Assembly (NCBI GenBank): GCA_913062815.1
Contig: CAJXWZ010000003.1
Location: 39,919-103,918 of the forward strand
Reading direction: 5' to 3'
DNA: 64,000 nt
DNA from: an uncultured Colwellia sp.
Lineage (GTDB): Bacteria; Pseudomonadota; Gammaproteobacteria; Enterobacterales; Alteromonadaceae
The notes below the pieces were generated by a model, which was not told the DNA's origin, made no database searches, and worked only from the letters and a program-made list of their open reading frames with translations. Below, in pieces: positions 174-27,174 of the stretch. The number at the start of each line of letters is the position of its first letter. Positions within the stretch are counted from its first letter, which is position 1. Position numbers and translations under genes: made by a program.

Positions 174-190
174 GTTTCAGACCTCCTTAT

Positions 191-2191: not shown

Positions 2192-3394
2192 TTAGTTTTT
2201 ATTTGAACAAGCACTTGCTAAAACATTTTCTATTACTGAGCACATTAGGGTTATTTCAGCTAGCGTCAGTGTCGGGTGCACCAAAAACATCAAGCTTGTT
2301 TCACCTAAAATCTTTGCTACAGGCAGCGGATTTTCTGGCCGAAAGTTGGTATTGTCAAAGGCTTTTTCTAAGTACACTTCAGAGCATGACCCTTGAAAAC
2401 ATGGTACGCCTAGAGCATTAACTTCATTGACAATACGGTCACGATCCCATGATTCACTGAGTCTATCTGTATTCACAAACGCATAATATTTATATTGAGC
2501 GTGTTCGATGTAATCAGGAATATTTACTAACCGGATACAAGAAAACTTAACTAAACTATTTTCGATTAATCGAGCATTATTGTTTCGTTTATCGAACCAA
2601 TCAGGCATTTTCGTTAATTGAATTCTACCGATAGCAGATTGCATCTCAGTTAAACGCCAGTTCGTACCAAAACTTTCGTGTAACCACCGAAAGCCTGGCG
2701 GGTGGCTTTTGTTATAGATAGCATCCCATGATTTGCCATGATCTTTGTAAGCCCACATCTTTTTCCAAAGCGATTCGTTGTTGGTTGTAACCATACCGCC
2801 TTCGCCACCTGTAGACATGATTTTATCCTGGCAAAACGACCAACAACCAATATCTCCAATAGCGCCTACTGCTTGCCCTTTATATTTTGTACCGTGAGCC
2901 TGAGCACAATCTTCAATAACCAATAGTTCATGAGCCTTAGCAAACGACATAATCTCATCCATTTCACAAGGCATTCCCGCTAAATGTACACAAATTATTC
3001 CTTTAGTATTTTCACTCAATACCGCTGAAATAGTAGCTGCGGTAATATTTTGGCTATTGAAATCAACATCAGCAAAGACTGGGGTAGCACCTGCAGTCAC
3101 AATAGAGCTTGCCGAAGCTAGAAAGGTTCTCGAAGTAACAATAACTTCATCAGAAGAACAGCCTCCATTTCTTGCTCCAATATTTAAGGCAACTAAGGCT
3201 AAATCTAATGCTAAAGTTCCATTAGCAACGGCAATAGCATGCTTAGAGTCAGAAAAGTGGGCAAACTCTTTTTCAAATTCACGGCCTTCTTGCCCGGTCC
3301 AATAATTGACTTTGTTCGATAAAAGTACACGCGAAGCCGCATTGGCTTCTTCTTCACTAAAGCTTGGCCAAGGTGAAAACTTTGTATTTAACAT
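2192..3394 (-). CDS. DegT/DnrJ PLP sugar aminotransferase (PglE/QhbB-like)
   Basis: 400 aa; IEDCAQAHG, SFCQDK(IMSTGGEGG) PLP lysine; N-terminus PWPSFSEEEA...SNKVNYWTG is typical of the QhbB-like subgroup. Confidence 0.92.
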   Translation of the reverse strand: MLNTKFSPWPSFSEEEANAASRVLLSNKVNYWTGQEGREFEKEFAHFSDSKHAIAVANGTLALDLALVALNIGARNGGCSSDEVIVTSRTFLASASSIVTAGATPVFADVDFNSQNITAATISAVLSENTKGIICVHLAGMPCEMDEIMSFAKAHELLVIEDCAQAHGTKYKGQAVGAIGDIGCWSFCQDKIMSTGGEGGMVTTNNESLWKKMWAYKDHGKSWDAIYNKSHPPGFRWLHESFGTNWRLTEMQSAIGRIQLTKMPDWFDKRNNNARLIENSLVKFSCIRLVNIPDYIEHAQYKYYAFVNTDRLSESWDRDRIVNEVNALGVPCFQGSCSEVYLEKAFDNTNFRPENPLPVAKILGETSLMFLVHPTLTLAEITLMCSVIENVLASACSNKN

Positions 3395-3412: not shown

Positions 3413-4030
3413 TTATTTTTTTATTAATGCTGGAGAGCCTACAGCAGTCACATTAGCGGGAATATTTTCTAACACCGTAGAGTTTGCGCCTATAATAGTA
3501 TTAGTGCCTATTTCAACACCTTGTTTGGTTACAGAGCCAATCCCCAGCCAACTGAAAGCGTTCACTTTAGTATTTCCGGCAAGGGCGACATTTGGACTAA
3601 GGTGAACAGCCTCTTCCAAAATACAATCATGCTCAACAACCGCAGCGGTATTAATAATGCAGTTTTGTGCAACTTTTGCAAAAGCATTGACTACCACATT
3701 TGCTAACACAGCACTGCCTGAAGCAATACTAGCATATTGACTAATCACGGCTGAAGGATGAATTAACACGGGCAAGGTAAAACCGTGCGCTTGAAGTTGA
3801 TTGGCAAGTTTAGCACGAATTGCATTATTACCAATGGCAACAAACACAGAAGGAAAGGCATCAGGTTGAGCAAATAAGTCGTCAAATGAGCCAAGTACTG
3901 CCCAGTGTTCTAAATGTGTTTTTTCTGGAAATGCATCATCAAAAAAAAAGACTTGATAACCACAAGCTTCAGCTAAATCAGCAATTACTTTACCATGGCC
4001 ACTGGCACCCACTACCGCGATCTTTTTCAT
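3413..4030 (-). CDS. Sugar N-acyltransferase, PglD/NeuD family (hexapeptide repeats)
   Basis: 205 aa; GASGHGKV, FVAIGNNAIR, LIHPSA, hexapeptide repeats, VGSPA C-terminus. Confidence 0.9.
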   Translation of the reverse strand: MKKIAVVGASGHGKVIADLAEACGYQVFFFDDAFPEKTHLEHWAVLGSFDDLFAQPDAFPSVFVAIGNNAIRAKLANQLQAHGFTLPVLIHPSAVISQYASIASGSAVLANVVVNAFAKVAQNCIINTAAVVEHDCILEEAVHLSPNVALAGNTKVNAFSWLGIGSVTKQGVEIGTNTIIGANSTVLENIPANVTAVGSPALIKK

Positions 4031-4137
4031 ACTTAATTAATTTCTTATACCGAGTGTTTAATAGCGCTTAAGTTATTTAAGACATTATATTTAAAGCTGT
4101 GATGGATTATATCAATTTAATCAACTAAATAACTAGC

Positions 4138-4167
4138 AAAAAAAAAGAGCACCTAAGTGCTCTTTTT
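4138..4167 (-). terminator. Intrinsic terminator after the putative S-layer gene (possibly bidirectional)
   Basis: Stem GAGCAC(4147-52)/GTGCTC(4157-62), 4-nt loop, flanked by A9 (U9 on the minus strand) and T5. Confidence 0.85.
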
Positions 4168-4213
4168 ATAATTAACGGTAATAGTTATTTCATAACTATA
4201 TTGTTAATTAAGC

Positions 4214-5956
4214 TTATTGCCATACACGGCTAGCTTTACAAGACTCAGTTACACCACCACCGTTTGCATCATTATTAGTAACAGTTGATGTACAAACTTC
4301 ATTGATGTTGTAAAGAACAGGTGCATCAGCACGTGAGTCTGGAGACTTGTTCTGTACCGCTAGGTGAACACTGTTTTGTGGAGCAACAACAGTAAACGTA
4401 ACACCAAAGTGGAAGTTTTCAGCCGCATCTAACGTGTTAGCTGTTTGCGCGTTGATTGCAGTAACAATATCAGAGCCTAAGAAAGCAGCTTGACCTTGTG
4501 AATCAACAGTACCTAAAGATACGTTAGTGAACTCAGTTCCAGTTGGAACAACTGACATACCAGTAGTTGCATTATAAACTACAACATCCATACGGATATC
4601 AGCAGCAGTACCTGTAGTAGACTCATTAGTAAATTTCATTACTGAAGTCCAACCAGCAGAGTTAATGCTATAAACGTAAGGAACTTTGGCTTGCATGCCG
4701 TTAATTCCCCATGTATGTGAAGTAGTATCAGCAACTACTGTAAACGAAGCAACGTCTACTGGTTCGCCATCTGATTGATCGGCATCAATAGTTAAAGTAG
4801 CTTTCCAATCACCTGTTGCTAGTACAGCAGGAGATGCAGCATTAACTGTTGTATTATCAGTAGTGTTTACAAAGATTTCTACATCGTTAGATACTAATAA
4901 GTCATCTGCAACCATGTTTGATGCTAAAGACCAGCTTGTATCTGTAGTTGAAGCAGTTAGGTCAGTAGCACCTAATTCTACGTCAGTTACACCTTGGTCG
5001 CCTTCAGTACGATCAATAGTTAATACGTAAGTATCAGTCGCATCATCAAGAACCCAAGTATATTCAGCTGTATTCGTTAAGATAGCTTTAGCTTCTGATT
5101 CAACAACAGAAGGAGTATCGCCACCAGCTTCAACAACAAAACCACCACGTGATAACGTAGCATTTTCAACATCAATGATAGAATCAGCAACAGTTGTGAA
5201 TGTGAATGATAAACCGTCTACTAACTCAACAGCATCTGCTACATTAGTTAAAGGTGCTGTTAAGTCATTTGATGAATCATCTTTTGCGCCAGTTACTTGA
5301 GCAGTAACGATAGTACCGTTAGCTGAACCGTCTGGAACGATAAAAGAAGGTAAATCAGTTGCAGCGAAAGTAGCAGCAGTAAACAATTGAATTAACGTAT
5401 CAGCAGGAACTGGGTCAGTATCAGCGCCAACTGTGTTTGCAGCACCGGCATCTGTACGAGTATAACTAGCGGCTGCTAAAGTATTACCAGTATCAACTAA
5501 GAATTTTAATTGTGAGTAGTAATTAGTAGCATCGCCAGATGCAACTTCTGTGAAATCAGAAAGTGTTGCAACTTGAACCCAAGCATCATTAGTTTCATCA
5601 TAGATTGCTAAGAACATAGTCGCATCAGGTACTAAACCACCATTAGCAAAATCTACGATTAGTGATGAACCTTGCGATAACGCAACAGCTGGAGTGTAAA
5701 CAACAGCACGGTCAGTTGCACCAACACCAGGGTTATTTGACACATCGTAATCAACAGCAGCTGAATCAGCAGCAAAAAAACGATATTCCGCATCAATTTT
5801 CTTACCCATTGCTGCAGTAGCAGTCAAATCAACATTTGCTGTTTCTGGAGAATCCGCATGATCTACAATTGCAAGTGATGAACTAGCAGCTATTGCACTA
5901 CCAGCTGTTAAACTACCTAAAACAGCTAGCGCTAGGATAGATTTATTAAGTTTCAT
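4214..5956 (-). CDS. Secreted acidic Ala/Thr/Asp/Val-rich protein, putative S-layer protein and T2SS substrate
   Basis: 580 aa; Sec signal MKLNKSILALAVLGSLTAGSAIA; few basic residues; C-terminal WGINGMQAKVPYV...VMKFTNES segment recalling Slr4-type S-layer proteins (from memory); codons skewed to GCT/ACT/GTA/GAT; AGGA SD; own promoter and terminator; directly after gspD. Confidence 0.7.
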   Translation of the reverse strand: MKLNKSILALAVLGSLTAGSAIAASSSLAIVDHADSPETANVDLTATAAMGKKIDAEYRFFAADSAAVDYDVSNNPGVGATDRAVVYTPAVALSQGSSLIVDFANGGLVPDATMFLAIYDETNDAWVQVATLSDFTEVASGDATNYYSQLKFLVDTGNTLAAASYTRTDAGAANTVGADTDPVPADTLIQLFTAATFAATDLPSFIVPDGSANGTIVTAQVTGAKDDSSNDLTAPLTNVADAVELVDGLSFTFTTVADSIIDVENATLSRGGFVVEAGGDTPSVVESEAKAILTNTAEYTWVLDDATDTYVLTIDRTEGDQGVTDVELGATDLTASTTDTSWSLASNMVADDLLVSNDVEIFVNTTDNTTVNAASPAVLATGDWKATLTIDADQSDGEPVDVASFTVVADTTSHTWGINGMQAKVPYVYSINSAGWTSVMKFTNESTTGTAADIRMDVVVYNATTGMSVVPTGTEFTNVSLGTVDSQGQAAFLGSDIVTAINAQTANTLDAAENFHFGVTFTVVAPQNSVHLAVQNKSPDSRADAPVLYNINEVCTSTVTNNDANGGGVTESCKASRVWQ

Positions 5957-6069
5957 TTTATTTCCTATATATTTAATTTATAAATTAATGAACATTTTAT
6001 TTTTGAGCAAAACCTTTGCCCTAGGTCTCGAGACAAGACAAAGGTTTCACACAGGTTCGTTCAAACAAG

Positions 6070-6098
6070 ATTTGAACAAAAAACAAATACCTTGTCAA
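6070..6098 (-). promoter_or_regulatory. Candidate sigma70 promoter of the S-layer gene
   Basis: TTGACA (6098-6093), 17-nt spacer ending TGT (extended -10), then TCAAAT (6075-6070); overlapped by inverted repeat GTTCAAA-N5-TTTGAAC (6059-6077). Confidence 0.5.
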
Positions 6099-6346
6099 CT
6101 CTTTAATATTATTCCGATATTTTTTATTCTTAGAGTGAATAATATTATCTAAATCATGCGAAACTTCAGTTTACAAGTTTCCTTACAATTTAACTAAAGA
6201 TAATAACGAAATATTACTGGACTGATTAAACCACTTAGATCAAAGGGAAACAAGTACTTAATGATAAAAAAACTATCTTCTGGCTGTTTTTTAGACTATA
6301 CAGCTTAATTTAGCGCAAAATACCATCACTTTATCTGTATTGATGG

Positions 6347-8416
6347 TTAATTAAATTGTATTTCTGTAGCGCTACCTGAATAATCTTTAATTAAATTATC
6401 AATATCATCACCATCACTGAGCACTTTAGGAGTAAGTAATATAATCAATTCTGAGCGGGTTTTATCTTCACTTTTACTCAAAAATAAATTCCCTATAAAA
6501 GGTAAATCTTTAAAAAAGGGTACGCCGCTATCATTGACACTTCTATCTTCTTGAATTAAACCGCCGAGTACAATTGTTTGACCACTACGCGCCAACACTG
6601 TTGTTGTAATGGTCCGGTCTGAAATAATAGGCGAGCTTATATCCGATAAATTATTCGCAAGCGCTGATGAGACCGTTTGTGCTACATTCAATGACACTAC
6701 ACCTTTGCCACTAATGGTTGGGGTAACACTGAGTGAAACACCCGTAGAGCTATATTGTACCGACTGAATTATCGTATCAGCATCGCCGTTAGAGTTAGAG
6801 CTTTGTTGGGTTAAAATAGGTACTTGTTGACCAACATTTAATGATGCCGACTCGCCATTTTTCACCACAATACGCGGGTTAGATAAAATGTTTACCCGAC
6901 TTTCAGTTTCTAGTAACTGTAAAACTACCGAGTAATCTACATTCGCTAGACTGAAGGTTAAGCCTTTGTCCATTGTTAGTTGTCTTTGAAAACCGGTATC
7001 ACCCAAATTGTTATTCAAAAACCACTCTATACCTTGCTGATATGAGTCACCTAATGTCACCGAGGCAATTGTGGCTTCAATAACTACTTGTTTAGGCACT
7101 ATATCCATCTGTCGAAGCAGAGGCAAAATTTCATGATATTTTGCTGGGGTAGTATAAAAAACCAAGGCATTTTGATGTGGAGAAATCATCATTGATAACT
7201 CTTCAGTGGCGACTCCTGAACTAGCTGAGCCAGCACTTGCCCCTTTTGTCTGATTGGATCTATTATTGGTAGACGACTGTGATGTAGATTTATTCGATGC
7301 AGGGGAGGTTTGACCATTTTGCAAAGCAATTAGATTGGCAATACTTTCTCCAATGTCCTCAACGTTCGCATTTTCAGGATTAAAGGTATAATAACGTTTT
7401 TTAGAGGTCGGAGACGGCTTATCTAGCACCTTAGTCCAGTAGGCAACTCGATTTAAAATAAGTTCATTAGCGCTGTGCACAATCACAGCATTGCGTTGTA
7501 ACAAAGCAGTAAAAGCTACTCGAGCATTTTTGTGCTCAACATCAATACCCTCTGCTAATAATAGTTCAGTAATTTGAGCAATGAAGTCTTCCACATTTAT
7601 ATAGGTAAACTCATGCAGCCCGATAAATTTATTTTTAACATCAGGTAGGTCAAAAGTATTAATAATCCTTAAAAACTGTCCTACTTCTTTAGCATTACCT
7701 ATTGCTAACACTGCATTGCGCTCGTTTATCCAGCGAGTACGAATATTAATTAACGAGCCTACCACTTGATTTAATGAATCCCAATCGGCATATAATATTG
7801 GCACTAGTTGCGCAATACGTTCATCTGAAGCTGTAGGAATATCACCCTGTTCTCTACCAATACCTAAGCTGAACTTTCCTTTACTACCACTTTGCTTATT
7901 TACAAAGAAAAACAACACTGAGTCACGAGAATCGAACTGAACTTTACTTTTAGCGAGTAACTCTGTAGAAAGCGAGTAAAGTTTTTGCTGGCTCACTTTT
8001 TCTTGCAAATTAAGCGTCATGGTTTCGTTAGTTAATTTTGAAATAGACTCGTCAAGTACATAACTCAAACCAAGATGTTCACCATAAACTAAATGAATAA
8101 AATCATTTAATTGCATCTCATTAATGGCTATTTGTATATCTTCATCTGCACTTAATTGGTTAAGTAGCTCATTACTTTTATTCTCAAATATTTTTGCTTG
8201 CTCTTCAGCTTTAATGCCTTCAAGTATCATGTATTTGTCAATAACATCATTCTCTTTAACTGCTTCAGATTGCGACTGTTTTTCTTGTTGTTCGCCATTA
8301 TTTTTTAGCACCGAATTAGGCACATTTAAAACGGACTCATCATGAGTAGCACAACTCGACAAGGCGAAAATTGAAATTAAAAAAAAGGATATTTTACTTA
8401 ACGGCATTGTTTTCAC
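6347..8416 (-). CDS. gspD: Type II secretion secretin, predicted lipoprotein
   Basis: 689 aa; lipobox ALSS-C; N0-N3 domains; secretin motifs QVVIEATIASV, ILSNPRIVVKNGESASLNVGQQVP, TIVLGGLI, VPFFKDLPFIGNLF, RSELIILLTP. Confidence 0.93.
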   Translation of the reverse strand: MKTMPLSKISFFLISIFALSSCATHDESVLNVPNSVLKNNGEQQEKQSQSEAVKENDVIDKYMILEGIKAEEQAKIFENKSNELLNQLSADEDIQIAINEMQLNDFIHLVYGEHLGLSYVLDESISKLTNETMTLNLQEKVSQQKLYSLSTELLAKSKVQFDSRDSVLFFFVNKQSGSKGKFSLGIGREQGDIPTASDERIAQLVPILYADWDSLNQVVGSLINIRTRWINERNAVLAIGNAKEVGQFLRIINTFDLPDVKNKFIGLHEFTYINVEDFIAQITELLLAEGIDVEHKNARVAFTALLQRNAVIVHSANELILNRVAYWTKVLDKPSPTSKKRYYTFNPENANVEDIGESIANLIALQNGQTSPASNKSTSQSSTNNRSNQTKGASAGSASSGVATEELSMMISPHQNALVFYTTPAKYHEILPLLRQMDIVPKQVVIEATIASVTLGDSYQQGIEWFLNNNLGDTGFQRQLTMDKGLTFSLANVDYSVVLQLLETESRVNILSNPRIVVKNGESASLNVGQQVPILTQQSSNSNGDADTIIQSVQYSSTGVSLSVTPTISGKGVVSLNVAQTVSSALANNLSDISSPIISDRTITTTVLARSGQTIVLGGLIQEDRSVNDSGVPFFKDLPFIGNLFLSKSEDKTRSELIILLTPKVLSDGDDIDNLIKDYSGSATEIQFN

Positions 8417-8882
8417 CTGAGTTGAATAAATTTAAGGTATATTTTTGTTCTTTTAGTTCTAGCTCAATAGCTCGAGCACTTATATCAATAATTTTAGCGC
8501 CTAAAACATCTTCACCTTTACTGGCATGATAGTAATGGCCAAAGCCTTCTACGGGGTTTTCTTGTTCCGCTTTGAACGTCGCATACAAAGTATTAGCTTT
8601 TAAACTGATGGCTAACAATCGAATTTTAGTTTGGTCGAAGGAGAGTGTGTCTGATGATAATAAGGCAGTATCTCCTTGTGCTTGATTAAACCCGCCTGAT
8701 TGCGTTGGGAAAATATCAGTCCTAAATTCTACTGCACTTATTTTTGTCGGGAGTGTCACTTTATTATCAAAGTCAACATTATTTTTTAGCTTACCATGAG
8801 CAAAGCTGATATCACTCAATCTCAACACAGTATCTACTATAAGGTAGGCTAGCAATAAAGCTATGATCACTAGCTTATTCAT
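8394..8882 (-). CDS. Bitopic membrane protein, divergent GspC/PilP-like
   Basis: 162 aa; N-terminal TM; C-terminal beta-rich IRLLAIS...KGEDVLGAKIIDISARAIEL resembles a GspC HR domain; located just before the secretin. Confidence 0.5.
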   Translation of the reverse strand: MNKLVIIALLLAYLIVDTVLRLSDISFAHGKLKNNVDFDNKVTLPTKISAVEFRTDIFPTQSGGFNQAQGDTALLSSDTLSFDQTKIRLLAISLKANTLYATFKAEQENPVEGFGHYYHASKGEDVLGAKIIDISARAIELELKEQKYTLNLFNSGENNAVK

Positions 8883-9454
8883 ATAGGCTTCCTTAATTGC
8901 ATCGTTGATATGATTAAGGTCAAATTATATTCATCAGACAAAGAGCCTCGTTTATTAATTCCGCTTAGTCTTAATGATTCTAAATGCCACAAGTTGTCAT
9001 TGTTACTAACCGACTGCAAAAATGATTGCATCAACACACCATTTCCAGAGACATGTATGGTAAGCATGTTTTTATTAAGTAAATCATTTACGAGTACATT
9101 GTCCCATTTGTGACTTACTATTTTTAATTCTTCACTTTCAGCAAGCTCAGTCAACAATTTTAATAATGCTATTTGTGCTAACTCGGTTTTTTCTGGTTTT
9201 AGTAACACCTGTTCAACACTACTAATTTCCGCTTTTAGCTGGCTGGTCAGAGCTAGCAAGTTATCTTGCGCTGCTTGTATTGACGCTGGAGATTTTATTT
9301 GCAAGGAGTTAATGGAGATTTTCTCTAGCCACTCTTCTTGAACGCTCAACAAAGGGAGCGCAATTAATTTTATAAAAAGCAAAAAAGACAGCAAATAAAT
9401 TGCGCCTTCATATTTTATAAAATCAGGGTGTTGTGTAATATTTTTAATATTCAT
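8879..9454 (-). CDS. Divergent GspM/PilO-like protein
   Basis: 191 aa; single TM, coiled coil, ferredoxin-like C-terminus; in the canonical M position. Confidence 0.5.
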   Translation of the reverse strand: MNIKNITQHPDFIKYEGAIYLLSFLLFIKLIALPLLSVQEEWLEKISINSLQIKSPASIQAAQDNLLALTSQLKAEISSVEQVLLKPEKTELAQIALLKLLTELAESEELKIVSHKWDNVLVNDLLNKNMLTIHVSGNGVLMQSFLQSVSNNDNLWHLESLRLSGINKRGSLSDEYNLTLIISTMQLRKPI

Positions 9455-9459
9455 AAAAA

Positions 9460-10518
9460 CTAATATTGGTAGGTTATGGTAAAGCGTTGTAAATTATTGA
9501 TGTTGATATCTGACACTTTATTGGCAAATCGAACATTTTTAATCATGTCTAGATTTATCATGTCTTCCAACACGGCTAAAGGTTCTTCACTTACCGCAGT
9601 AATGAACACTGAGTTGTCTCTGGTACTTATGCGCTCTAACGTGTAACTTTTAGTCGTTTGCGCTAACACTTCAAAAATAGAACCAATACCAACATTACCG
9701 TCAATCCCAACCGTTAACGCTGCATAAATATCTTGTTCACTTCTATAGGCAGTTCTTGTTTCTATAAAACCGGCTACTAACTCTGTATTGGTATGTGATT
9801 TATTTTGATAAAGTAAATCCAAGCCTTTAATTAAGGCGGTAGAAGCAAGTAAATAAAGAAACGTAGCAACAAAGGCGCTTTGTATAAAATTGCAATATCG
9901 ACAATTTACTTGGCCACTTTTTTCTGATGATAATTTAAAGCTTAACAAAGAAGGTAATGCTTTATATAAGCCTAATTTAAATAGACTCGTTTTTTCTTGA
10001 AAACTATCCACTGAAACCGTATTGTCTTTATCATTCAATAATGTAGTATTATTTTTTGATATCTTGAAACTTTGTTGAGCCGAATTATTACTGACCCAAT
10101 AATTACCATCATCAATGAAAGCCATTTGACCTAATGGCAAAGCTTTAAAAATCAGATAATTCTCAGGGAAAATAAAGAGTGCTTTTTTAAGCAGACCATT
10201 ATTCAACTTTTCTATCAAACTTTTTTTGTAAAACCAAAAGTGTGCTTCATAACCTTGCTCTACTTTTTTTAGATCATAAAAGAAGTCGGCGTCTTCAAAT
10301 GGACATAGCGAATTAGCGTCTAGCTGCAATGCTTTAATCACGTGTGATTTATTACTAATAGGATAAACTTTATCGGTTTCAAAAAAGTGAGCTTTTTTAA
10401 CAATAATGGCGACAACTTGCTCAAGTCCAGATCCAGAGAGCGACTCCATCTTGTTATCAGAAAAATACGCTATCTTTGAGAGTAGGTAGCTTTTAAGGTT
10501 GGCCTTTATTTTTTTCAT
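9460..10518 (-). CDS. Divergent GspL/PilN-like protein
   Basis: Likely start MKKIK at 10518 (track extends to 10548); large cytoplasmic domain, one TM (FVATFLYLLASTALI), periplasmic coiled coil; follows gspK. Confidence 0.5.
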   Translation of the reverse strand: MKKIKANLKSYLLSKIAYFSDNKMESLSGSGLEQVVAIIVKKAHFFETDKVYPISNKSHVIKALQLDANSLCPFEDADFFYDLKKVEQGYEAHFWFYKKSLIEKLNNGLLKKALFIFPENYLIFKALPLGQMAFIDDGNYWVSNNSAQQSFKISKNNTTLLNDKDNTVSVDSFQEKTSLFKLGLYKALPSLLSFKLSSEKSGQVNCRYCNFIQSAFVATFLYLLASTALIKGLDLLYQNKSHTNTELVAGFIETRTAYRSEQDIYAALTVGIDGNVGIGSIFEVLAQTTKSYTLERISTRDNSVFITAVSEEPLAVLEDMINLDMIKNVRFANKVSDININNLQRFTITYQY

Positions 10519-10522
10519 TAAT

Positions 10523-11428
10523 TCATGACTCCCAGTGCCAGATTTCATATGGGTAGGGACTGTCTAACGCAACTTTTGTTGAGAATACAACCTTTTTCAC
10601 CACTTTTACTTTATCTAACGAGATTGTAACTTCTAATTCAACTGTTTGTATTAATTTAGTTTCTGCGCTTTGCCTTGACAATAAGCTAGGTACTCTTGTT
10701 AAATTAATTAAAGTACCCTCTTCACCTCTTTGTTGTGCAATTGAAGAGGCTTGTTCAATACCATATAACCATTCTATCAATTGTTTAGGTGATAATCGAA
10801 CATTAAAATCCGCTAAGGTAAAAAGAGATAAGTGATCACGAATTTTAAGTAACCACTCTTGTTCAAAGCCATAAATTAGCGCGAGCTCATCAATTGATTG
10901 GATCTGGAAGTTTCTTGGCTTTAACAGGCCTAAACGGGTATAGCCATCTTCTTCTAGACCGTTTAAATTAACAAACCTGTCGGTATCTTGCCAGTCTTTC
11001 AAACGAGCAATGACTTGATCTACTTTAATGTTTCTAGTGTCTACACCATTTGTTATACCACGCAACAACAATTTAATCAGTGGAAAATCTGTGGGTATTA
11101 ACGATATTTTGCTCGCTTCATCTCTGACTGAAAGAGTAACACTTGGGCTTATTGTAAAAGGATTACCATACAGATTCCAACCAGGATACTTAGCCGTAAT
11201 AGCGCCATCAGCAATTTCACTTCGATGTTTAACAAAGTTAAAAATTGCTTGATTGAGTACCGATTCTGCCTTTAACTCAGCTTTAATCTTATTCTGCATT
11301 AACAGTTGAGATTTTATTATTTGCTGGCTGTACCAAACAAAGTAAGAAACAATCAACGCAATAATAAGGCTTGTCACTAACGAAATAATTAATGCCACAC
11401 CGCTTTGTTTACTATACGAAAGCATCAT
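10523..11428 (-). CDS. gspK: Minor pseudopilin GspK
   Basis: 301 aa; QSG|VALIISL cleavage site lacking Glu5; VRDEASKISL, LKDWQDTD, PRNFQIQSIDEL motifs. Confidence 0.85.
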   Translation of the reverse strand: MMLSYSKQSGVALIISLVTSLIIALIVSYFVWYSQQIIKSQLLMQNKIKAELKAESVLNQAIFNFVKHRSEIADGAITAKYPGWNLYGNPFTISPSVTLSVRDEASKISLIPTDFPLIKLLLRGITNGVDTRNIKVDQVIARLKDWQDTDRFVNLNGLEEDGYTRLGLLKPRNFQIQSIDELALIYGFEQEWLLKIRDHLSLFTLADFNVRLSPKQLIEWLYGIEQASSIAQQRGEEGTLINLTRVPSLLSRQSAETKLIQTVELEVTISLDKVKVVKKVVFSTKVALDSPYPYEIWHWES

Positions 11429-12129
11429 TAACCCTCAACATTATTATACAAGGTGTTAACTTTAATCGCTTTGCGACTGTTCAGGGTGAGCGGTAGAAAT
11501 ATCATTGAACGCCCAGTTATAGCATAATTTAGGCGAATAGCTTTAGGTAAACCTCTTTCTACCGTTGAATAAAAACCATCTTGATAATCATTTCTTATTT
11601 CTCGTAAAGAAATATCACTATTGAACGGCTTTCGATGTAAATAAGACAATGTGACTAATTCATCGATAGTAAGTATGATTTTTGAGATTTCTGTTTCGGG
11701 GACATCTGATAAATTACTGATATAGCTTTTAGTTAAAGGGGATTCCGATACTTGAATTTGTGTACTAGTGCCAATGTGAATTAAATTGAGCTGCACAATA
11801 ACATCAGCTTTAAAGCCAAACATTGAAAAATGAGAAATATAAGCCAGTTCATTTCCATTACCTTTTACATAAGGTACCATCATTTTACTTTGATATACGT
11901 CAGTTTCTACATAATAATCACTCATGGATTTAATTGATTTATTAAGTAAACTAACGGCTGAAAGCCGCTGATAACCTTCATCTTTATAATCTTTCGATTT
12001 AGAGACTGCTTGTAAATATACCGCAGTAGACATATAGGCTGAGGCAATCAAAGAAGAAAAAATAACCATGACAACCAATAGCTCAATAATGGTAAACCCT
12101 TTAGCGTTCTTGATATGATACGGCTGCAT
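11428..12129 (-). CDS. Minor pseudopilin, GspJ-like
   Basis: 233 aa; KG|FTIIELLVVM N-methylation site; shares base 11428 with gspK. Confidence 0.75.
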   Translation of the reverse strand: MQPYHIKNAKGFTIIELLVVMVIFSSLIASAYMSTAVYLQAVSKSKDYKDEGYQRLSAVSLLNKSIKSMSDYYVETDVYQSKMMVPYVKGNGNELAYISHFSMFGFKADVIVQLNLIHIGTSTQIQVSESPLTKSYISNLSDVPETEISKIILTIDELVTLSYLHRKPFNSDISLREIRNDYQDGFYSTVERGLPKAIRLNYAITGRSMIFLPLTLNSRKAIKVNTLYNNVEG

Positions 12130-12544
12130 CTTTGTCTACCATCACGCGACTATAAGAATGCGCCAACTCACTGCTTGCACCTGCAGTTGTTAGCACTAAT
12201 TGATAGTCTATTAAATAATATGTATTAGGCTTTTCTGAAAAGCTATTAATATCTGATTCAAAACTTCTTTCTCTGAAGTTATCTATAATTGTTCCTTCCC
12301 AATTAACCGTAACATCATTAAAAGAATAATTGCCTGCCAAGTTGGTAATATCGTCATTCAAATCAATTAAATTTTTTGCCTGCATTATGGCGATATATTT
12401 ATCGGCTGCCCCTTTTTGTTTAATAACTAATTTAGCGTATTGAGCATAGGCCACTTGGCTTAACGAGATAGCTGAAATCAAAATAACCGCTGCGATTAAT
12501 AATTCAATTAAGGTAAAACCTTGATTATGTTTTGCAGAGAACAT
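12101..12544 (-). CDS. Minor pseudopilin, GspI-like
   Basis: QG|FTLIELLIA site; likely start MFSAK at 12544 (track 12562). Confidence 0.72.
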   Translation of the reverse strand: MFSAKHNQGFTLIELLIAAVILISAISLSQVAYAQYAKLVIKQKGAADKYIAIMQAKNLIDLNDDITNLAGNYSFNDVTVNWEGTIIDNFRERSFESDINSFSEKPNTYYLIDYQLVLTTAGASSELAHSYSRVMVDKDAAVSYQER

Positions 12545-12938
12545 AACTCTCCTCGCAATCAATCAGTAACTGACTTGTTTTTGACGTGTTTTTTACTTTG
12601 AAATAAACAGGCGAAGGTATGACGAACCCGGTCGATGAAAAGTGAAGTTGTGCTGATGTAAATATAAGTTCGTCAAAAACTTCTGTCTTATATAACTGGT
12701 CTTCTAATAAAATATCAACTTCATTGGCAGCAAAAGCTAATGTGGCAGACTTTCCTGAAAAAAAGGTTAGTTTGGACACTTGTTTAACTAACGACTGCAA
12801 CTTTCTCTCTTCAATAAATCGTTTAGAACTCTGTAGTGACTTTGTTGCTCCTGGAGCAACAATAGCAACCAAGCCCGCTATCATGATCATAACGACAATT
12901 AATTCAATAAGAGAGAAACCTTGTTGCTTACCCATCAT
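12525..12938 (-). CDS. Minor pseudopilin, GspH-like
   Basis: 137 aa; QG|FSLIELIVVM; ATGA overlap with the gspF stop. Confidence 0.72.
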   Translation of the reverse strand: MMGKQQGFSLIELIVVMIMIAGLVAIVAPGATKSLQSSKRFIEERKLQSLVKQVSKLTFFSGKSATLAFAANEVDILLEDQLYKTEVFDELIFTSAQLHFSSTGFVIPSPVYFKVKNTSKTSQLLIDCEESYVLCKT

Positions 12939-14140
12939 AAAACATTAATATCCTGAACACTCATGATGCTCATGATCATACCGATAACGACACCGCCAAC
13001 AACACCACCCATAAACAAAATGAGAATAGGCTCTAATACCGTTGTTGCTGTTGCAATATATCTATCCATTTGAGCTTGACTTCTTTGGGCTATATTTTGA
13101 AATGATTTAGCTAATTTCCCTGTTTCTTCTCCTGTTTCTATATAACCGAGTTGAATATCATCAAAAAGCTTCACACCATCTAAGGCATCACACATTTTTA
13201 TGCCTTGCTTTATTTGGTTTGATGCACCGACAAGTGAATCTCTGAGCTTAGGCATTGTTACGGCAGAAACGGATAATTTTAGTGCTTGGCTCAGTGGAAT
13301 ACCTGAATTAAGTGTTATTTGTAATGACGTAGAAAATCGAATTCTATCAACCCCGCGAGTTAAATGAGAAACCCCTGGTAGCGAATAAAACTGGCGTTGA
13401 AAGGCATCACTGGTTTGCAGCAGATACCTTACTAGCATAACCCCTAACACTGGCGAGGCTATAATAAAACCAATAACAAATAGACCATATTTGTCCATAA
13501 AATTGGCTGTATTGAGTAAAAATACGGTATACCAAGGAAGTTCAGTTGCCTGTTCAAACAAAGGGGCTAACTGAGGCAAAACAAAATAAAAAATAAAAGT
13601 GATGGCTAATATACACACCATAAATATAACACTAGGATAAGCTAACGCTTGTTGAACTTTTTGTTTTAAGCTCATTCTAAACTGCATATCTTCAGATATT
13701 CGGCTTAATACGTCAGGTAATTGCCCTGATGCTTCACCTAGTTCAATAAGACTCAAATATAGGCGGTTGAACAATTTAGGGTAATTACTTGCTACTTCAA
13801 ATAATGACGAACCGCCCCTTATTTCTCCGCGCAGATTACTCAAAAACAATTTAGCTTGAGTTAAAACAATACCTTTTTCAGTAAGCTCAATTGCTTTGTC
13901 CAACTTAATGCCATTTTGCATTAGCTCAGCTAAATTAGAGAAAATTTCTTCCAGCACAGATAAAGGTATATTAATTGAATGACCCTGATGCTGTTTAGTG
14001 CTATCTAACTCGTTAATTTCTACAGCAATTAAGCCTTGTTTAGCTAGCTTGTGTTGTATTTCTTGTTTAGTCTGTGCAACTTCTTTTCGCTGAATTAATT
14101 CACCTGAGTTATTATAGGCTTTAACATCATAAGCTTTCAT
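12935..14140 (-). CDS. gspF: T2SS inner-membrane platform protein
   Basis: 401 aa; two GspF domains, GEASGQL and GEETGKL, ALAYPSVI, LEPILILFMG. Confidence 0.93.
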   Translation of the reverse strand: MKAYDVKAYNNSGELIQRKEVAQTKQEIQHKLAKQGLIAVEINELDSTKQHQGHSINIPLSVLEEIFSNLAELMQNGIKLDKAIELTEKGIVLTQAKLFLSNLRGEIRGGSSLFEVASNYPKLFNRLYLSLIELGEASGQLPDVLSRISEDMQFRMSLKQKVQQALAYPSVIFMVCILAITFIFYFVLPQLAPLFEQATELPWYTVFLLNTANFMDKYGLFVIGFIIASPVLGVMLVRYLLQTSDAFQRQFYSLPGVSHLTRGVDRIRFSTSLQITLNSGIPLSQALKLSVSAVTMPKLRDSLVGASNQIKQGIKMCDALDGVKLFDDIQLGYIETGEETGKLAKSFQNIAQRSQAQMDRYIATATTVLEPILILFMGGVVGGVVIGMIMSIMSVQDINVL

Positions 14141-15816
14141 TAACCCGCTACCCTAACGACTTCTTCTATACTGGTTAGCCCTTTAATTACTTTTAATAAA
14201 CCATCACTGTGCAAAGAACGGATATTATTTTGAGCCATCAACGCCCTTGCACTTAAAACGAATTCAGCGCCTTTGGGTAGCTTTTCAATGCTGTCATCAC
14301 AACGCAAGTATTCCACAATCGCTAAACGACCATAATAACCTGTATGATTACATTGCTTGCAACCCTTCCCTTTTTTTAATGATATTTTTGTATTATTAAA
14401 CTGTTGTGCTAATGCTTTTAAACCGAAATCAGCGACGATTTTTTCATCCTCATATTCATAAGCACACTCATTACAAATTTTCCTTACTAATCGTTGCGCT
14501 ACAATAGAGATAAGCGCTGCATTGAGTAAATATTCATCTAAGCCAAGATCAAGTAAGCGAGTATAAGCACTCGGCGCATCATTAGTATGTAAAGTACTAA
14601 ATACTAAATGCCCAGTTAATGCCGATTGCATACCTATTTGAGCTGTTTCGCTATCACGAATTTCACCCACCATGATTACATCAGGATCTTGACGAACAAT
14701 GCTTCGTAAACCTTTAGAGAAATCAAAACCTATATCATGATTAACTTGAATTTGGTTAATGCCTTCTAGCTGATATTCAACCGGATCTTCCAAAGTTATA
14801 ATTTTAATTTTGTCATCATTAAGCTGATTTAGAAAAGAATAAAGGGTCGTTGTTTTACCACTACCCGTTGGGCCTGTTAGTAAAATAACACCTGACGTGC
14901 GGGTTAAATCTTCTCTAATTAAATCGAGTAAATCGCTTTCAATGCCTGATTTTTCCAAATCATAATTTAAAGATTGTTTCATTAAAAAGCGCATTACAAC
15001 ACTCTCACCTTCGTTTAAAGGCAAGGTTGATAGCCTGATATCAAATTCTTGATTGGCAAGTTTAAATTCTATTTTTCCGTCTTGTGGTCTTCTTTTCTCA
15101 GCAATATCTAAGTTAGCCAGTATTTTCAAACGAGATATTATGGGGAGGAACAAACTCTTTGGCAGTAATTCTAATTCATTTAATACGCCATCAACACGGA
15201 TTCTTGCCCTGCAACCTTCACGGTAGGGCTCTATATGTAAATCTGAAGCCCCCATCTTAACTGAGCGCATAATTAAAGAGTCGACTAAACTTACAATAGG
15301 GGTTTCGCTAGCAAGTTCCTTTAACCTTTCAACATCAGTATCAAAGTCACTCATATACTCGTCAAAACCAATGGCTTTAACTTCTAATATTTTTGCTTCA
15401 GCATTTCGATAAGTGGTGGGGCTACAAATTAAATAAGAGGCTGTTACTCCTTCATATTCAAGATATTCGCCAATGTCATAATGATTAGTATTAGTAACAA
15501 GTATATTAATATGACTTCCTTCCCAGTGAATGGGGATTCCGCCTTTATCTTGAATAAACTGAATATTCAAAGGACAGTTTGTCAGTACCGCATTTAGCTT
15601 TTGATTAGAAATACTCTCGTCAAAGTTCTCAAAATCGACATAAGCACATGAAGATGATTTTGCTAAAACTACGGCAATATCTTCTTCTGATGCTAATCCT
15701 AAACTTGCTACAATAGCGTCAGAATCACCACCAAATTTCTGTTGGAATTGTATTACTTTTTGAACTTGGACTTCGGTAATTTTACCTTCTAACTTTAAGC
15801 TGTTTAAAAATTCCAT
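14140..15816 (-). CDS. gspE: T2SS assembly ATPase
   Basis: 558 aa; ASDLHIEP, Walker A GPTGSGKT, EDPVEY, RQDPDVIMVGEIRD, TGHLVFSTLHTND, CNEC/CKQC zinc motif. Confidence 0.95.
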   Translation of the reverse strand: MEFLNSLKLEGKITEVQVQKVIQFQQKFGGDSDAIVASLGLASEEDIAVVLAKSSSCAYVDFENFDESISNQKLNAVLTNCPLNIQFIQDKGGIPIHWEGSHINILVTNTNHYDIGEYLEYEGVTASYLICSPTTYRNAEAKILEVKAIGFDEYMSDFDTDVERLKELASETPIVSLVDSLIMRSVKMGASDLHIEPYREGCRARIRVDGVLNELELLPKSLFLPIISRLKILANLDIAEKRRPQDGKIEFKLANQEFDIRLSTLPLNEGESVVMRFLMKQSLNYDLEKSGIESDLLDLIREDLTRTSGVILLTGPTGSGKTTTLYSFLNQLNDDKIKIITLEDPVEYQLEGINQIQVNHDIGFDFSKGLRSIVRQDPDVIMVGEIRDSETAQIGMQSALTGHLVFSTLHTNDAPSAYTRLLDLGLDEYLLNAALISIVAQRLVRKICNECAYEYEDEKIVADFGLKALAQQFNNTKISLKKGKGCKQCNHTGYYGRLAIVEYLRCDDSIEKLPKGAEFVLSARALMAQNNIRSLHSDGLLKVIKGLTSIEEVVRVAG

Positions 15817-15819
15817 TAG

Positions 15820-16209
15820 TTAGAAAACCACATCATCGCCGCCGTCTTCAATTTTGCCATTTTTACCCTTTGAAAACATTTTATAGCTAACTTGTGACTC
15901 TTCAAGTTGATATAGGTAAGCATTATTCCAGGGATCTGAAGGTATTGCTTTAGGAAAATAAGGACCATCCCAGTTTTTATTACTAGACTCTCTTAGCTCA
16001 TCAAGATTTTCAGGGTATACGCCAACATCTAAGCGATAGGTGTCTAATGCGGTAGCAAATAGCTGCATTTGTGCTTCTGCTGTTTTAATCTTTGAACTAT
16101 CAACCTTACCAAACATTGCTGGGCCAATAAGTGAGGCGATTAAACCGATTATAACCATAGCAATCATTAACTCAATTAATGAAAAACCTTTTTGTGACTG
16201 CTTGCGCAT
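15820..16209 (-). CDS. gspG: Major pseudopilin
   Basis: 129 aa; KG|FSLIELMIAM, ALDTYRLDVGVYP, WDGPYF, DPWNNAY. Confidence 0.93.
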   Translation of the reverse strand: MRKQSQKGFSLIELMIAMVIIGLIASLIGPAMFGKVDSSKIKTAEAQMQLFATALDTYRLDVGVYPENLDELRESSNKNWDGPYFPKAIPSDPWNNAYLYQLEESQVSYKMFSKGKNGKIEDGGDDVVF

Positions 16210-16246
16210 TTACTTATACCTTTGATTAAATCTAAACTTCCGCGCT

Positions 16247-16275
16247 ACTATACACAAAAAAAGTACTGGTATAAA
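16247..16275 (-). promoter_or_regulatory. Candidate extended -10 promoter for the T2SS operon
   Basis: TGTG-TATAGT (16256-16247) followed by AGCGCGG; weak -35 TTTATA at 17 nt. Confidence 0.4.
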
Positions 16276-16635
16276 AGATCTAAACAAACAATTACATTTT
16301 TTTTATGGTTCTCGTTATTTCTGTATAGAAAAATTCAGTTTTTCGAAAGAAAAAACAGCTAAAATAGAGAAGGTGAAAGCCCTTTTTGTAAATTCTCATG
16401 TACCAATGACTGGTAGTTGTTTTGATAAAATAAATATTGCCCTCATCAAATTGGACAAAAGCTAACGTGCCATCAAGATTGAATAACAGTCAGTTTTCTA
16501 ATATTTCTGGTATGGTTTGAATTTCACTAACCACGGGGGAGACCATTTCATTCGCATCGAAAAACACTATTTATTAATCGCTTCCTTATACTGTAATCGA
16601 GTTAATTCCCTCCTCTGACGTTAACTCTGTTGTTA

Positions 16636-17229
16636 TTAACGATTAGTGCCAGTAAATTTTTGCATAGTAACATCACCTTCCGCTGAAATGCCTTCTTTAA
16701 TAAATACCTTCTTTACCGTTAACAATAGTATTTTAATATCTAGCCAGAAACTTTGATTATCAACATACCAGACGTCAAGTTTAAACTTATCCTCCCAACT
16801 GATAGCATTTCTCCCATTCACTTGTGCCCAACCAGTAATGCCGGGGCGAACATTGTGTCGCTTTGCTTGCTCGCTGTTATATAAAGGAAGATATTCTACT
16901 AATAAGGGGCGCGGGCCTACTAAGCTCATATCGCCTTTTAAAACACTCCATAACCCAGGCAATTCATCTAAACTTGAGCTACGTAATTTAGTACCAAAGG
17001 CAGTCAGCCTTTCTTCATCAGGTAGTGTTTTACCATCAGCATCTACCGCATCTCGCATACTGCGAAATTTACTCATTTCAAAAATAGCGCAATGTAAACC
17101 CGGTCGCTTTTGTTTAAATAAAACAGGCTTACCTAAGTTTTTAGCTATTTTACGACTTACTATAAACATGATTGGCGATAGCAATACTAACGCCATACTC
17201 GCCACTACGACGTCAAACAAGCGCTTCAT
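16636..17229 (-). CDS. Initiating phosphoglycosyltransferase, PglC/ItrA1 family
   Basis: 197 aa; MKRLFD, KFRSM, SLDELP, GDMSLVGPRPLL, PGITGWAQVNGRN. Confidence 0.93.
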   Translation of the reverse strand: MKRLFDVVVASMALVLLSPIMFIVSRKIAKNLGKPVLFKQKRPGLHCAIFEMSKFRSMRDAVDADGKTLPDEERLTAFGTKLRSSSLDELPGLWSVLKGDMSLVGPRPLLVEYLPLYNSEQAKRHNVRPGITGWAQVNGRNAISWEDKFKLDVWYVDNQSFWLDIKILLLTVKKVFIKEGISAEGDVTMQKFTGTNR

Positions 17230-18455
17230 TCGTGAACACCTGCTACCCAGTTAACCCACTTGTCGGCTAACTCTTTACGATCGAATTCTTTGCTAGCTAA
17301 ATCACTTGCTCTATTGCCCATGAGTTTTAACTCTGCTTTATCAGAAGCTGCTTTTTCTAGGGCATCAGCAAAGGCGATTGGATCATCTGGTGCTACTGTA
17401 AAACCACAACTATTCTCATTTATCATACCTTCTAACCAACCAGGATAATTATTAAGTACAGGTAAGCCTGCTGAGATATAGTCAAAAAACTTATTCGGTG
17501 AAGTGCCATAATAAAACGCAGGTATATTAGCGAGTAATTGTAACCCTAAATCTGCACTTGCCATTAAACCTGCCAGTTTCTCTTTGTTTACCGGCGGATG
17601 GAAAACCACATTACTAAGTGCTAACGCCTGTGCTTTAACTTGTAATTCATGCTTAAGTTTTCCTTGACCAACAAAGGCTAACTTAATGTCAGTTCTGCCT
17701 CGATTTTTTAATTCAAGTGCCGCATTTAATGCCGCATCTAAGCCATTAGCTTGCCCGTGGGTGCCAGTAAAGATCGCCATTAAATCAGAGTTGCTAACCC
17801 CTTCTGGCCGCCATTCATTGCTTTTTTCATCATGGGCTAATTGGAAAATATCTAAATCACAGCCATTTGGGACTAGCGCTATTTTCTCTGGTTTTACCCC
17901 TCGCTTCTCAATTCCCGCAACGATGCCAGGAGAAAGACCAACACACCTATGAGCGCTACGGTATGATAACCACTCTAGCATTGACATTAACCCTAAGACT
18001 ATTGGGTTTTTTATCACGCCCATTTGTTTGGGTAATTCAGGCCAAAGATCTCGCACTTCAAAGACAAAGGGCTTTCTGCGTAACCAACGAGCAAAAATAC
18101 CGGGAATACCCGCTGTTAATGGTGTGGTAGTTGCAAAAACCACATCGTATTGCTGTGTTAAGGCTAGTCCGATACTTTTCATGGCAAACTTGACAAAAGT
18201 AGATGCCCGCTTAATAAAACCATCAGTATTCGAATACGCTAAATCAAACTCAATAATATTAATCCCAGCTATCGAGCCTTCTCTTTTGCCATTTTTAAAT
18301 TCGTGTTCTAACCCGGTATCACCCCCACCGTAGCTTCCGCATACCATAGTCACTTGGTGACCGTGATGAACTAGACGGCGCGCCATTTCATAAGAGCGAA
18401 TGCCTGTAGCTCCCTTGGGTGTTGAAAAATGTTGGTGGAAATAAAGTACTTTCAT
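17226..18455 (-). CDS. GT4 glycosyltransferase (WbuB-like)
   Basis: 409 aa; GT-B fold, EVRDLWPE, SPNKFFDYISAGLPV. Confidence 0.88.
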   Translation of the reverse strand: MKVLYFHQHFSTPKGATGIRSYEMARRLVHHGHQVTMVCGSYGGGDTGLEHEFKNGKREGSIAGINIIEFDLAYSNTDGFIKRASTFVKFAMKSIGLALTQQYDVVFATTTPLTAGIPGIFARWLRRKPFVFEVRDLWPELPKQMGVIKNPIVLGLMSMLEWLSYRSAHRCVGLSPGIVAGIEKRGVKPEKIALVPNGCDLDIFQLAHDEKSNEWRPEGVSNSDLMAIFTGTHGQANGLDAALNAALELKNRGRTDIKLAFVGQGKLKHELQVKAQALALSNVVFHPPVNKEKLAGLMASADLGLQLLANIPAFYYGTSPNKFFDYISAGLPVLNNYPGWLEGMINENSCGFTVAPDDPIAFADALEKAASDKAELKLMGNRASDLASKEFDRKELADKWVNWVAGVHE

Positions 18456-20319: not shown

Positions 20320-20323
20320 TTAC

Positions 20324-26082: not shown

Positions 26083-26091
26083 AGATATTTC

Positions 26092-27171: not shown

Positions 27172-27174
27172 TAT

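Follow-up and report, generated by a model that had tools for sequence, protein, structure and literature searches.

Bacterial modules for 2,4-diacetamido-trideoxyhexoses (N,N'-diacetylbacillosamine, diNAcBac, or QuiNAc4NAc) keep the gene for the initiating phosphoglycosyltransferase next to, or fused with, that for the acetyltransferase, as in Campylobacter (pglF-E-D-C), Neisseria (pglB-C-D, with PglB a fused transferase-acetyltransferase) and Acinetobacter (itrA1-qhbC-qhbB-gdr-galU). Here we analyse a locus of an uncultured Colwellia sp. in which these two genes are separated by a 12.6-kb cassette encoding a type II secretion system (T2SS) together with a candidate surface-layer (S-layer) protein. 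The window, by which we mean the whole 64,000-nucleotide stretch analysed, comprises positions 39,919 to 103,918 of the forward strand of contig CAJXWZ010000003.1 (assembly GCA_913062815.1). The closest described layout is that of Aeromonas salmonicida A450, where the O-antigen wb cluster contains, at the wzm/wzt junction, an insertion of vapA and the T2SS genes of the S-layer (Merino et al. 2015; PMC4483657, PMC4413209); in A. hydrophila AH-1 the same insertion is marked by a truncated wzm. The Aeromonas cluster runs spsE-F-G-H-I-J-K-L-M-orf2-spsD followed by vapA or ahsA, Orf2 is 166 aa long, the layer is tethered by lipopolysaccharide, and the excerpted sps gene tables of these papers list neither GspC nor a prepilin peptidase (PMC4483657, PMC4413209). 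A second relative is Slr4 of Pseudoalteromonas tunicata D2 and other marine Gammaproteobacteria (Pfam PF19526), an experimentally shown S-layer protein with a dedicated T2SS operon upstream (Ali et al. 2020; PMC7821379), and T2SS-cargo pairing is described at Slr4 loci of marine Gammaproteobacteria (PMC7821379, PMC11094555). The terms 'glycosyl' and 'neighbo(u)rhood' lead to no mention of a sugar-operon position in the Slr4 paper (PMC7821379). NpdA of Paracidovorax citrulli is reported to be an S-layer protein with an adjacent gsp1 T2SS (PMC10765051); it represents another Gram-negative S-layer family, and differs from the protein studied here in both cargo family and bacterial class.

Given the Aeromonas precedent, the Colwellia locus is a new example and not a new kind of system. 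What is particular to it is the pglC/pglD junction, a conserved pair of terminator and putative promoter, the co-occurrence in one genus of sites with and without the cassette, and a branch of cargo proteins not recognized by Pfam. We consider it probable that a cassette of an S-layer-type cargo and its dedicated T2SS was inserted between pglC and pglD and has been retained with its own signals; the promoter details and the functional tie to the glycan are proposed with less assurance.

From position 191 to about 41,000, family scans assign every gene of the window to a single surface-polysaccharide locus on the minus strand, to which all features given below belong. Read along this strand, a family 4 glycosyltransferase (GT4) gene (17226-18455; Pfam Glyco_trans_4_4 / Glycos_transf_1) forms the upstream flank, and a PglC-like small phosphoglycosyltransferase of 197 aa (16636-17229; Pfam Bac_transf, E 2e-62) is the last gene before the cassette. 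The 11-gene T2SS set, the gene of a 580-aa secreted protein and a terminator follow. Beyond them lie the PglD-like N-acetyltransferase, first gene after the cassette (3413-4030; PglD_N and Hexapep, TIGR03570 at 211 bits against a cut-off of 160.8), a PglE-like aminotransferase (2192-3394; Pfam DegT_DnrJ_EryC1, E 2e-87), a PglF/CapD-type membrane 4,6-dehydratase (191-2119; Pfam Polysacc_synt_2, E 1e-125, with CoA_binding_3) and, just past the window start, galU. This gene list, with its order and coordinates, had been given in an initial annotation of the window and was borne out by scans of open reading frames (ORFs) and families.

The enzyme set expected for a UDP-diNAcBac-type sugar is complete, with a 4,6-dehydratase, a C4 aminotransferase, a PglD_N acetyltransferase and a small monotopic phosphoglycosyltransferase; the product may be bacillosamine, another 2,4-diamino-trideoxyhexose or a sugar with another N-acyl group. 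The same four enzyme families make up the diNAcBac/QuiNAc4NAc modules and, once the cassette is removed, the order here is likewise transferase, acetyltransferase, aminotransferase, dehydratase and galU. Unlike in those modules, 12.6 kb lie between transferase and acetyltransferase. As in Aeromonas, glycan-pathway genes stand on both sides of the block, and they are adjacent in relatives; the block separates functionally paired surface-glycan genes, wzm and wzt there, pglC and pglD here. In contrast to the truncated wzm of A. hydrophila, both flank genes are intact, the PglC-like protein being full length (197 aa compared with 195-199 aa in relatives). The glycan also differs, being of Wzx/Wzy type with a bacillosamine-type initiating module rather than exported by an ABC transporter as in Aeromonas.

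We searched 400 genomes of the same order with PglC and PglD. Besides the source genome (G000; other G-numbers denote the genomes compared with it and L-numbers the loci of relatives), 49 genomes carried a PglC-like gene (E <= 1e-50), of which 40 also had a PglD-like match. In 38 of these 40 by hand tally, a set spanning many families of the order, pglC is followed directly by pglD on the same strand, with a few to about 46 bp between them; in the other two, the PglD-like match is a weak paralogue (28-33% identity) at a distance of tens of kb. Within the genus, G016 lacks the cassette and retains the order of the source genome across the whole junction, with an oxidoreductase (72% identity), a heparinase-like protein (52%), GT4 (74%), pglC (71%), pglD (57%) and pglE (70%). 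The two genes also adjoin each other in G019 and G017, again within the genus, and in G038 and G032. On this distribution, adjacency of pglC and pglD is, judged by gene order, ancestral, and the order in the source genome derived. Together, adjacency as the rule and the cassette-free G016 make insertion the simplest reading, in line with the proposal of the initial annotation that these genes are normally contiguous and that the cassette was inserted inside a conserved operon and kept. The conservation of that operon holds for the pglC-pglD pair; farther downstream, pglD-pglE and pglE-pglF are interrupted in G016, and pglD-pglE in G019. Between pglD and pglE both genomes carry an ORF of 142 aa with a PIN domain (L031:11990-12418 in G016, L032:2842-3270 in G019), probably the toxin of a toxin-antitoxin pair, which indicates that the operon tolerates other small insertions too. 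IS66-type ORFs occur between pglE and pglF in G016.

The split itself recurs, gene for gene, in two more lineages of the genus, which argues that the arrangement is not due to chance; occupied and empty sites are thus both found within the genus, and the shared split further supports insertion and retention. In G050 the series GT4-pglC-gspG through to the secretin is followed by the contig end. The complete order of GT4-pglC, cassette and pglD-E-F is present on an ENA contig (ERZ510998), whose pglC-gspG spacer is identical to that of G050, and on JGI metagenome contigs. Identity of the sister lineages to the source genome amounts to 81-83% for pglC, 86-87% for GspE, 80% for the secretin, 77-81% for the cargo, 65-67% for pglD, 74% for pglE and 79% for pglF, and GT4 of G050 is 82% identical; the sister-lineage GspE has a 90%-identity cluster mate from Colwellia sp. 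39_35_sub15_T18. The genes 5' of GT4-pglC are entirely different among the three cassette lineages, one of which has an rve-family transposase gene there. In addition, the source locus is flanked by galU-apt-dnaX and POT, neither of which lies inside the loci examined from G041, G016, L036 and L037. By GyrB, G050 is 90% identical to the source genome and is not its nearest relative; five species at 92-93% carry a Wza-like gene and lack pglC, pglF and the cassette secretin. On this one marker the block is patchy in the genus, a distribution that fits replacement of whole loci by recombination. Transposase genes of the IS21, IS66 and rve families were observed in the sister lineages just 3' of pglF or in the variable glycan part (L036:16172-21755, L031:14414-19395, L040:5181-6245), with none at the cassette junctions.

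The T2SS genes of the cassette start 426 bp downstream of pglC with gspG, encoding the major pseudopilin (15820-16209; Pfam T2SSG; TIGR01710 at 104 bits, cut-off 88.85). This is followed by a gspE-like ATPase gene (14140-15816; Pfam T2SSE, E 4e-122), a gspF-like platform protein gene (12935-14140; Pfam T2SSF) and four genes for minor pseudopilins H, I and J and for GspK (10523-12938; Pfam N_methyl in three proteins, and T2SSK_1st). A 362-aa L-like protein (9460-10548) is assigned by position only, a 191-aa M/PilO-like protein (8879-9454) has a weak Pfam PilO match, and orf162 (8394-8882; 162 aa) occupies the slot between the M-like gene and that of the 689-aa GspD-like secretin (6347-8416; Pfam Secretin, E 1e-46; TIGR02517 at 288 bits, under its cut-off of 351). 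The L-like, M-like and orf162 products are 68-72% conserved in the two sister lineages. A core Gsp-type set (E, F, G, H-K, L/M and D, with L placed by position only) is hence present. A Pfam scan of 4214-16209 detected no PDZ/GspC or Peptidase_A24 gene, and the sole A24 prepilin peptidase gene of the genome (PilD) lies on contig C22, adjoining pilB.

Elsewhere the source genome carries a canonical gspD-gspE cluster (C45), an MSHA cluster (C28) and type IV pilus genes (C22, C2), and the cassette secretin is distinct from its canonical GspD, MshL and PilQ. In a GspE tree, the cassette ATPases of the source genome and its relatives form one clade on a long branch (Shimodaira-Hasegawa-like approximate likelihood ratio test, SH-aLRT, 99) away from canonical GspE, MshE and PilB, a placement to be read with a long-branch caveat as regards the outgroups. 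By gene content and phylogeny, the cassette T2SS is an extra, dedicated system. As in Aeromonas, a dedicated T2SS is combined with an S-layer-type gene in last position and, between M and D, with a protein about 160-166 aa long; the L-like, M-like and orf162 proteins stand in the slots of SpsL, SpsM and Orf2, with order and sizes matching Table 2 of PMC4413209 in a comparison based on published tables. Unlike in Aeromonas, gspG comes first here and the cargo is not VapA.

The last cassette gene, 390 bp downstream of the secretin gene, encodes the 580-aa secreted protein (4214-5956), a candidate S-layer subunit with a signal peptide that we describe as a divergent Slr4 relative. It is acidic (74 Asp and Glu compared with 20 Lys and Arg) and rich in Ala, Thr and Val, with two Cys residues, both near the C-terminus, and a GC content at third codon positions of 0.19. 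Library scans returned no Pfam or NCBIfam match for the protein itself, which falls below the PF19526 gathering score, and its close relatives number only six among 5.8 billion proteins. Profile comparison brings it closer to Slr4. With hhalign, the window-cargo family aligned to the Slr4 set of the genus with 95.7% probability (E 9.8e-9) over residues 385-543, and a third cargo family from three further species reached 96.5%. Searching 1.84 billion representatives with the cargo-family profile yielded 61 clusters, and 16 of the 35 members scanned reach PF19526 (best E 2.6e-17). The similarity is limited to the C-terminal ~140 residues, the N-terminal ~380 being unrelated to Slr4 by sequence. 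A profile search with a deeper cargo alignment gave no PDB match at E up to 1.

Like the Slr4 system, this locus has T2SS genes (G, E, F, K, D and others) directly upstream of a cargo with a Sec signal in a marine gammaproteobacterial host; the C-terminal domain is common to both, and same-genus relatives carry a true Slr4 in the same slot. Unlike Slr4, the window protein is under the Pfam threshold and has an unrelated N-terminal part. Membership of the cargo in the Slr4 S-layer superfamily, as a divergent member, is well motivated by homology and gene context, on which the S-layer label likewise rests. The name 'S-layer/T2SS cassette' used in the initial annotation is accordingly upheld by remote Slr4 homology and by gene position, and not by the score of the cargo itself against Pfam Slr4.

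Transcription signals appear to partition the cassette. An intrinsic terminator follows the cargo gene (4142-4167; 11-bp perfect stem, 4-nt loop, T9 run), as had been noted before, and its stem is identical in three lineages (the source genome, L036 and L037), with a T-run one T shorter in L037. The spacer 3' of the terminator diverges among these lineages except for AAATTGATATAAT (4106-4118), which is kept exactly in all three and provides the candidate replacement promoter of pglD-E-F, with the extended -10 motif (TGnTATAAT) TGATATAAT at 4114-4106; the motif lies 75-88 nt before the pglD start in each. Two TATAAT hexamers had been put forward as a new promoter for these genes; that at 4106-4111 belongs to the conserved AAATTGATATAAT, and conservation does not extend to the one at 4084-4089. 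The cargo gene has a candidate strong promoter of its own (6070-6098), composed of TTGACA (6098-6093), a 17-nt spacer and TG-n-TCAAAT (6078-6070), in a block that is near-identical in three lineages and is succeeded by a conserved leader of about 110 nt. A candidate promoter of the T2SS genes (TTTATA-17-TATAGT; 16247-16275) emerged from a consensus scan, and the motif TTTGTGTATAGT is found upstream of gspG in the source genome, G050, L039 and L040. From this layout we infer that the cargo gene is a strongly expressed, insulated cistron and that pglD-E-F have a replacement promoter. Read-through of the terminator by way of an RfaH ops/JUMPStart element was also considered and rejected: GGCGGTAG has four copies in the window, at 9835 (plus strand) and at 1725, 19619 and 48537 (all minus strand), near chance expectation, with the first three inside ORFs by position.

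To place the cassette in a wider setting, we compared it with related systems in a same-genus sample of 55 species and beyond. Aliiglaciecola sp. CAU 1673, the only related locus found in a search of genome contigs, carries the same subtype, with every component detectably homologous (GspE 62%, GspF 52%, secretin 45%, cargo 44%), and groups with the source genome in the GspE tree (SH-aLRT 99). Its order is wza-wzz-wzy-GT4-x-pglC-like-wzx, cassette, GT4, that is, a glycan locus with a different junction and no pglD-E-F after it. The Slr4-type cassettes of the genus are more remote from that of the source genome, at about 50%, 35% and 32% for GspE, GspF and secretin, with undetectable minor components. 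Cassettes of this general kind occur in 15 of the 55 species. A more distant secretin of this kind is present in 13 other species, 12 of them with a cluster in the same G-E-F-...-D order; six of these 12 have a cargo candidate that aligns with the set, and nine cargo candidates align in all. At nine loci the secretin is followed by a signal-peptide protein of 450-600 aa, and the three that were scanned all match PF19526 (E 1e-25 to 4e-62).

Three Slr4-type cassettes of the genus lie in a glycan locus, either after a WecA-like initiating transferase (G065, G057) or at wza (wza/gspG, G023), and others are located at fadD, with genes for a pyruvyl transferase, flippase or acyltransferase on their flanks. 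Cassettes of this kind thus stand in or beside glycan genes at no fewer than four independent junctions, and by this distribution the cassette is a movable module with a preference for glycan loci. At its junctions in the source genome, no insertion sequence (IS), integrase ORF, terminal repeat or target duplication was detected, with all 12 cassette ORFs accounted for, and no direct repeat of at least 11 nt is common to the two junctions, which have only a 10-nt inverted match. The junction repeat and ORF checks agree with what the initial annotation had reported in this respect, and no mobile-element marks are described for Aeromonas either. The cassette does not qualify as a genomic island or a transposon.

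Additional features of the related cassettes were observed. At the fadD site, Slr4-type and third-type cassettes are flanked by polysaccharide pyruvyl transferase genes (L030:2961-5272, L029:15761-18075, L022:2125-4407, L028:15136-17670, L025:3449-5955), nitroreductase-like proteins or Wzx-like flippases being frequent partners; these neighbours recall the pyruvylated anchor glycans of Gram-positive S-layers. Members of the third cargo family (587-653 aa) are encoded upstream of gspG and not after the secretin (L023:1588-3351, L025:16673-18634, L028:2391-4286), with a DsbA-like thioredoxin lipoprotein gene between cargo and gspG in two of the three loci. A C-terminal block, W-x-(I/V/L)-N-G...VPY...T(V)xAP, is common to this family, the window protein and Slr4. 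In several relatives, Slr4 is followed by a multi-pass membrane protein of 528-553 aa that has no Pfam match (L027:16640-18226, L029:2126-3775, L030:17034-18695).

These findings can be brought together in a single scenario. A self-contained 12.6-kb module would have entered the short pglC-pglD gap of a 2,4-diacetamido-trideoxyhexose (bacillosamine-type) module, at the 3' end of a Wzx/Wzy-type surface-polysaccharide locus, in the ancestor of a few lineages of the genus. Since then, GT4-pglC, cassette and pglD-E-F may have been inherited or exchanged as a unit, with replacement of the variable part upstream. The T2SS genes would be read from upstream, from the conserved TATAGT promoter, or from both, and their five pseudopilins would be processed by the single PilD peptidase of the genome. 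The cargo gene would rely on a strong promoter of its own (TTGACA with an extended -10) and on a long leader, and would be closed by a strong terminator shielding pglD-E-F from heavy cargo transcription; pglD-E-F would be driven by the conserved extended -10 promoter 24-36 nt past the terminator. By analogy with Aeromonas, the linkage may have been kept so that the coat protein stays with the surface glycan that tethers or decorates it.

Several points weigh against this scenario. The promoters, read-through and insulation are deduced from the DNA sequence. No mobility signature at either junction accounts for entry of the cassette, and its shift in GC content is mild (~2-3 points; 35.7% in the cassette, 39% in the flanks, 37.9% in the genome). 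Across the order, the nearest relatives of pglC differ from those of pglD (in G209, pglC is 78% and pglD 28% identical), making a part-mosaic history of the flanks possible. S-layer formation by the cargo is a prediction: the tested cargo proteins P0001, P0003, P0004 and P0007 gave no PF19526 match even at E up to 10, and an AlphaFold2 model of the cargo, built from a 5-sequence alignment, is too poor for a fold search (predicted local distance difference test score, pLDDT, 47; predicted template modelling score, pTM, 0.33).

The last of these points bear on the nature of the 580-aa protein, which could be some other cargo that the T2SS exports in abundance, for instance an adhesin, an enzyme or a protein of the biofilm matrix, with its position reflecting neutral hitch-hiking in a recombination-cold conserved block and no functional link to the glycan. 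Consistent with this are the absence of Pfam, NCBIfam and PDB matches to the protein itself, the confinement of Slr4 homology to the C-terminal region and the poor structural model. Furthermore, the GT4 beside pglC is only 36% identical in one sister lineage, and a PglL_A search for an O-oligosaccharyltransferase gave no match, although the control likewise matched nowhere; each of the four polysaccharide loci of the source genome has one Wzy_C gene, and polymerase, ligase and O-oligosaccharyltransferase roles are not separable from Wzy_C. We nevertheless regard such a cargo as unlikely. In slot and size, in its signal peptide and acidic composition rich in Thr, Ala and Val, and in the monocistronic arrangement of promoter and terminator, the protein with its gene is like the Slr4 and VapA loci, nearly half of the scanned family members reach Pfam Slr4, and the repeated placement of such cassettes in or beside glycan genes parallels what is published for Aeromonas.

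A second alternative concerns how the split arose. In a mosaic assembly, the cassette would first have come to lie at the edge of a glycan locus ending in GT4-pglC, and pglD-E-F(-galU) would have joined later by recombination or arrived with the cassette. Wholesale replacement of glycan loci in the genus speaks for this history, the closest species by GyrB having kept a wza-like gene in loci devoid of pglC, pglF and the cassette, as do the order-wide discordance of pglC and pglD and the occurrence of cassettes at locus edges elsewhere (wza/gspG in G023, and beside fadD in several). Against it, G016 holds GT4, pglC, pglD and pglE contiguously, with the same two genes upstream, and the Aliiglaciecola cassette is not followed by pglD-E-F. 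Moreover, pglC, pglE and pglF rank alike in identity, cassette lineages above same-genus empty sites and these above other families. Unrelated ancestries of pglC and pglD/E/F, named at the outset as what would refute insertion, are not borne out within the genus for pglC, pglE and pglF, and the discordance persists between pglC and pglD across the order. Overall, we find a mosaic origin quite improbable. Finally, a split that was ancestral, with the cassette precisely deleted in all other lineages, could draw on the wide spread of the general cassette kind in the genus and is strongly disfavoured to the point of being barely credible, given the adjacency in 38 of 40 genomes from many families, the same adjacency or fusion in Campylobacter, Neisseria and Acinetobacter, and the fact that the other cassettes of the genus are different subtypes at other sites.

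Beyond the split module, the locus extends farther 5' to a Wza-like exporter gene (38335-41061), UDP-sugar dehydrogenase and epimerase genes and Wzz, and its variable block includes a Wzx flippase, a Wzy_C protein, a sulfotransferase and others. Next to GT4 lie genes for a heparinase II/III-like protein (18487-20319) and a 713-aa fusion of ADH_zinc_N and GFO/IDH/MocA oxidoreductase domains (20324-22465), both identified by family scan; the segments 18487-22465 and 23610-29500 also hold a beta-helix protein, a sulfotransferase and a DUF7033 protein. This combination suggests a sulfated glycan that contains amino-uronic acid. Three more polysaccharide loci of the source genome (contigs C20, C25 and C27) each have their own paralogue of the initiating phosphoglycosyltransferase and a Wzy_C protein. 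At the other end, the 5' end of galU looks disrupted (window 90-190, minus strand, and on to G000:C3:39199): a TAG stands immediately upstream of the coding frame, the Met at 120 is preceded by none of the start codons ATG, GTG and TTG, and an AGGAGG-TTG start lies in a different frame, across an A-run. The apparent disruption could be a homopolymer assembly error or a true frameshift.

Taken together, our results provide a well-resolved natural example that combines an empty site, an occupied one and, in another genus, a second junction. A tightly packed sugar operon can accommodate a large module of secretion and cargo genes and keep it in the long term, apparently by way of an added terminator and a new promoter. 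The pattern of an S-layer module within an O-antigen cluster, known from Aeromonas, is thereby extended to cold-marine bacteria of Alteromonadales type and to a glycan of Wzy type that is bacillosamine-initiated, and a divergent branch of Slr4 coat proteins that current Pfam models miss is defined. As a tentative idea, on balance doubtful, the glycan initiated by PglC and PglD-E-F may tether the coat protein or be attached to it by O-glycosylation, in which case the position would be no accident, and insertion, conserved terminator and promoter would have created a co-inherited 'coat plus anchor-sugar' supergene. If so, homologous recombination would carry this supergene from one Colwellia species to another, with variation in the remainder of the polysaccharide locus, and across marine Gammaproteobacteria the type of cargo would vary jointly with the clade of the T2SS ATPase and with the neighbouring glycan genes (pyruvyl transferase, flippase, WecA- or PglC-type initiator). 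Whether an S-layer protein and its anchoring glycan are passed on together can be put to the test at this locus.

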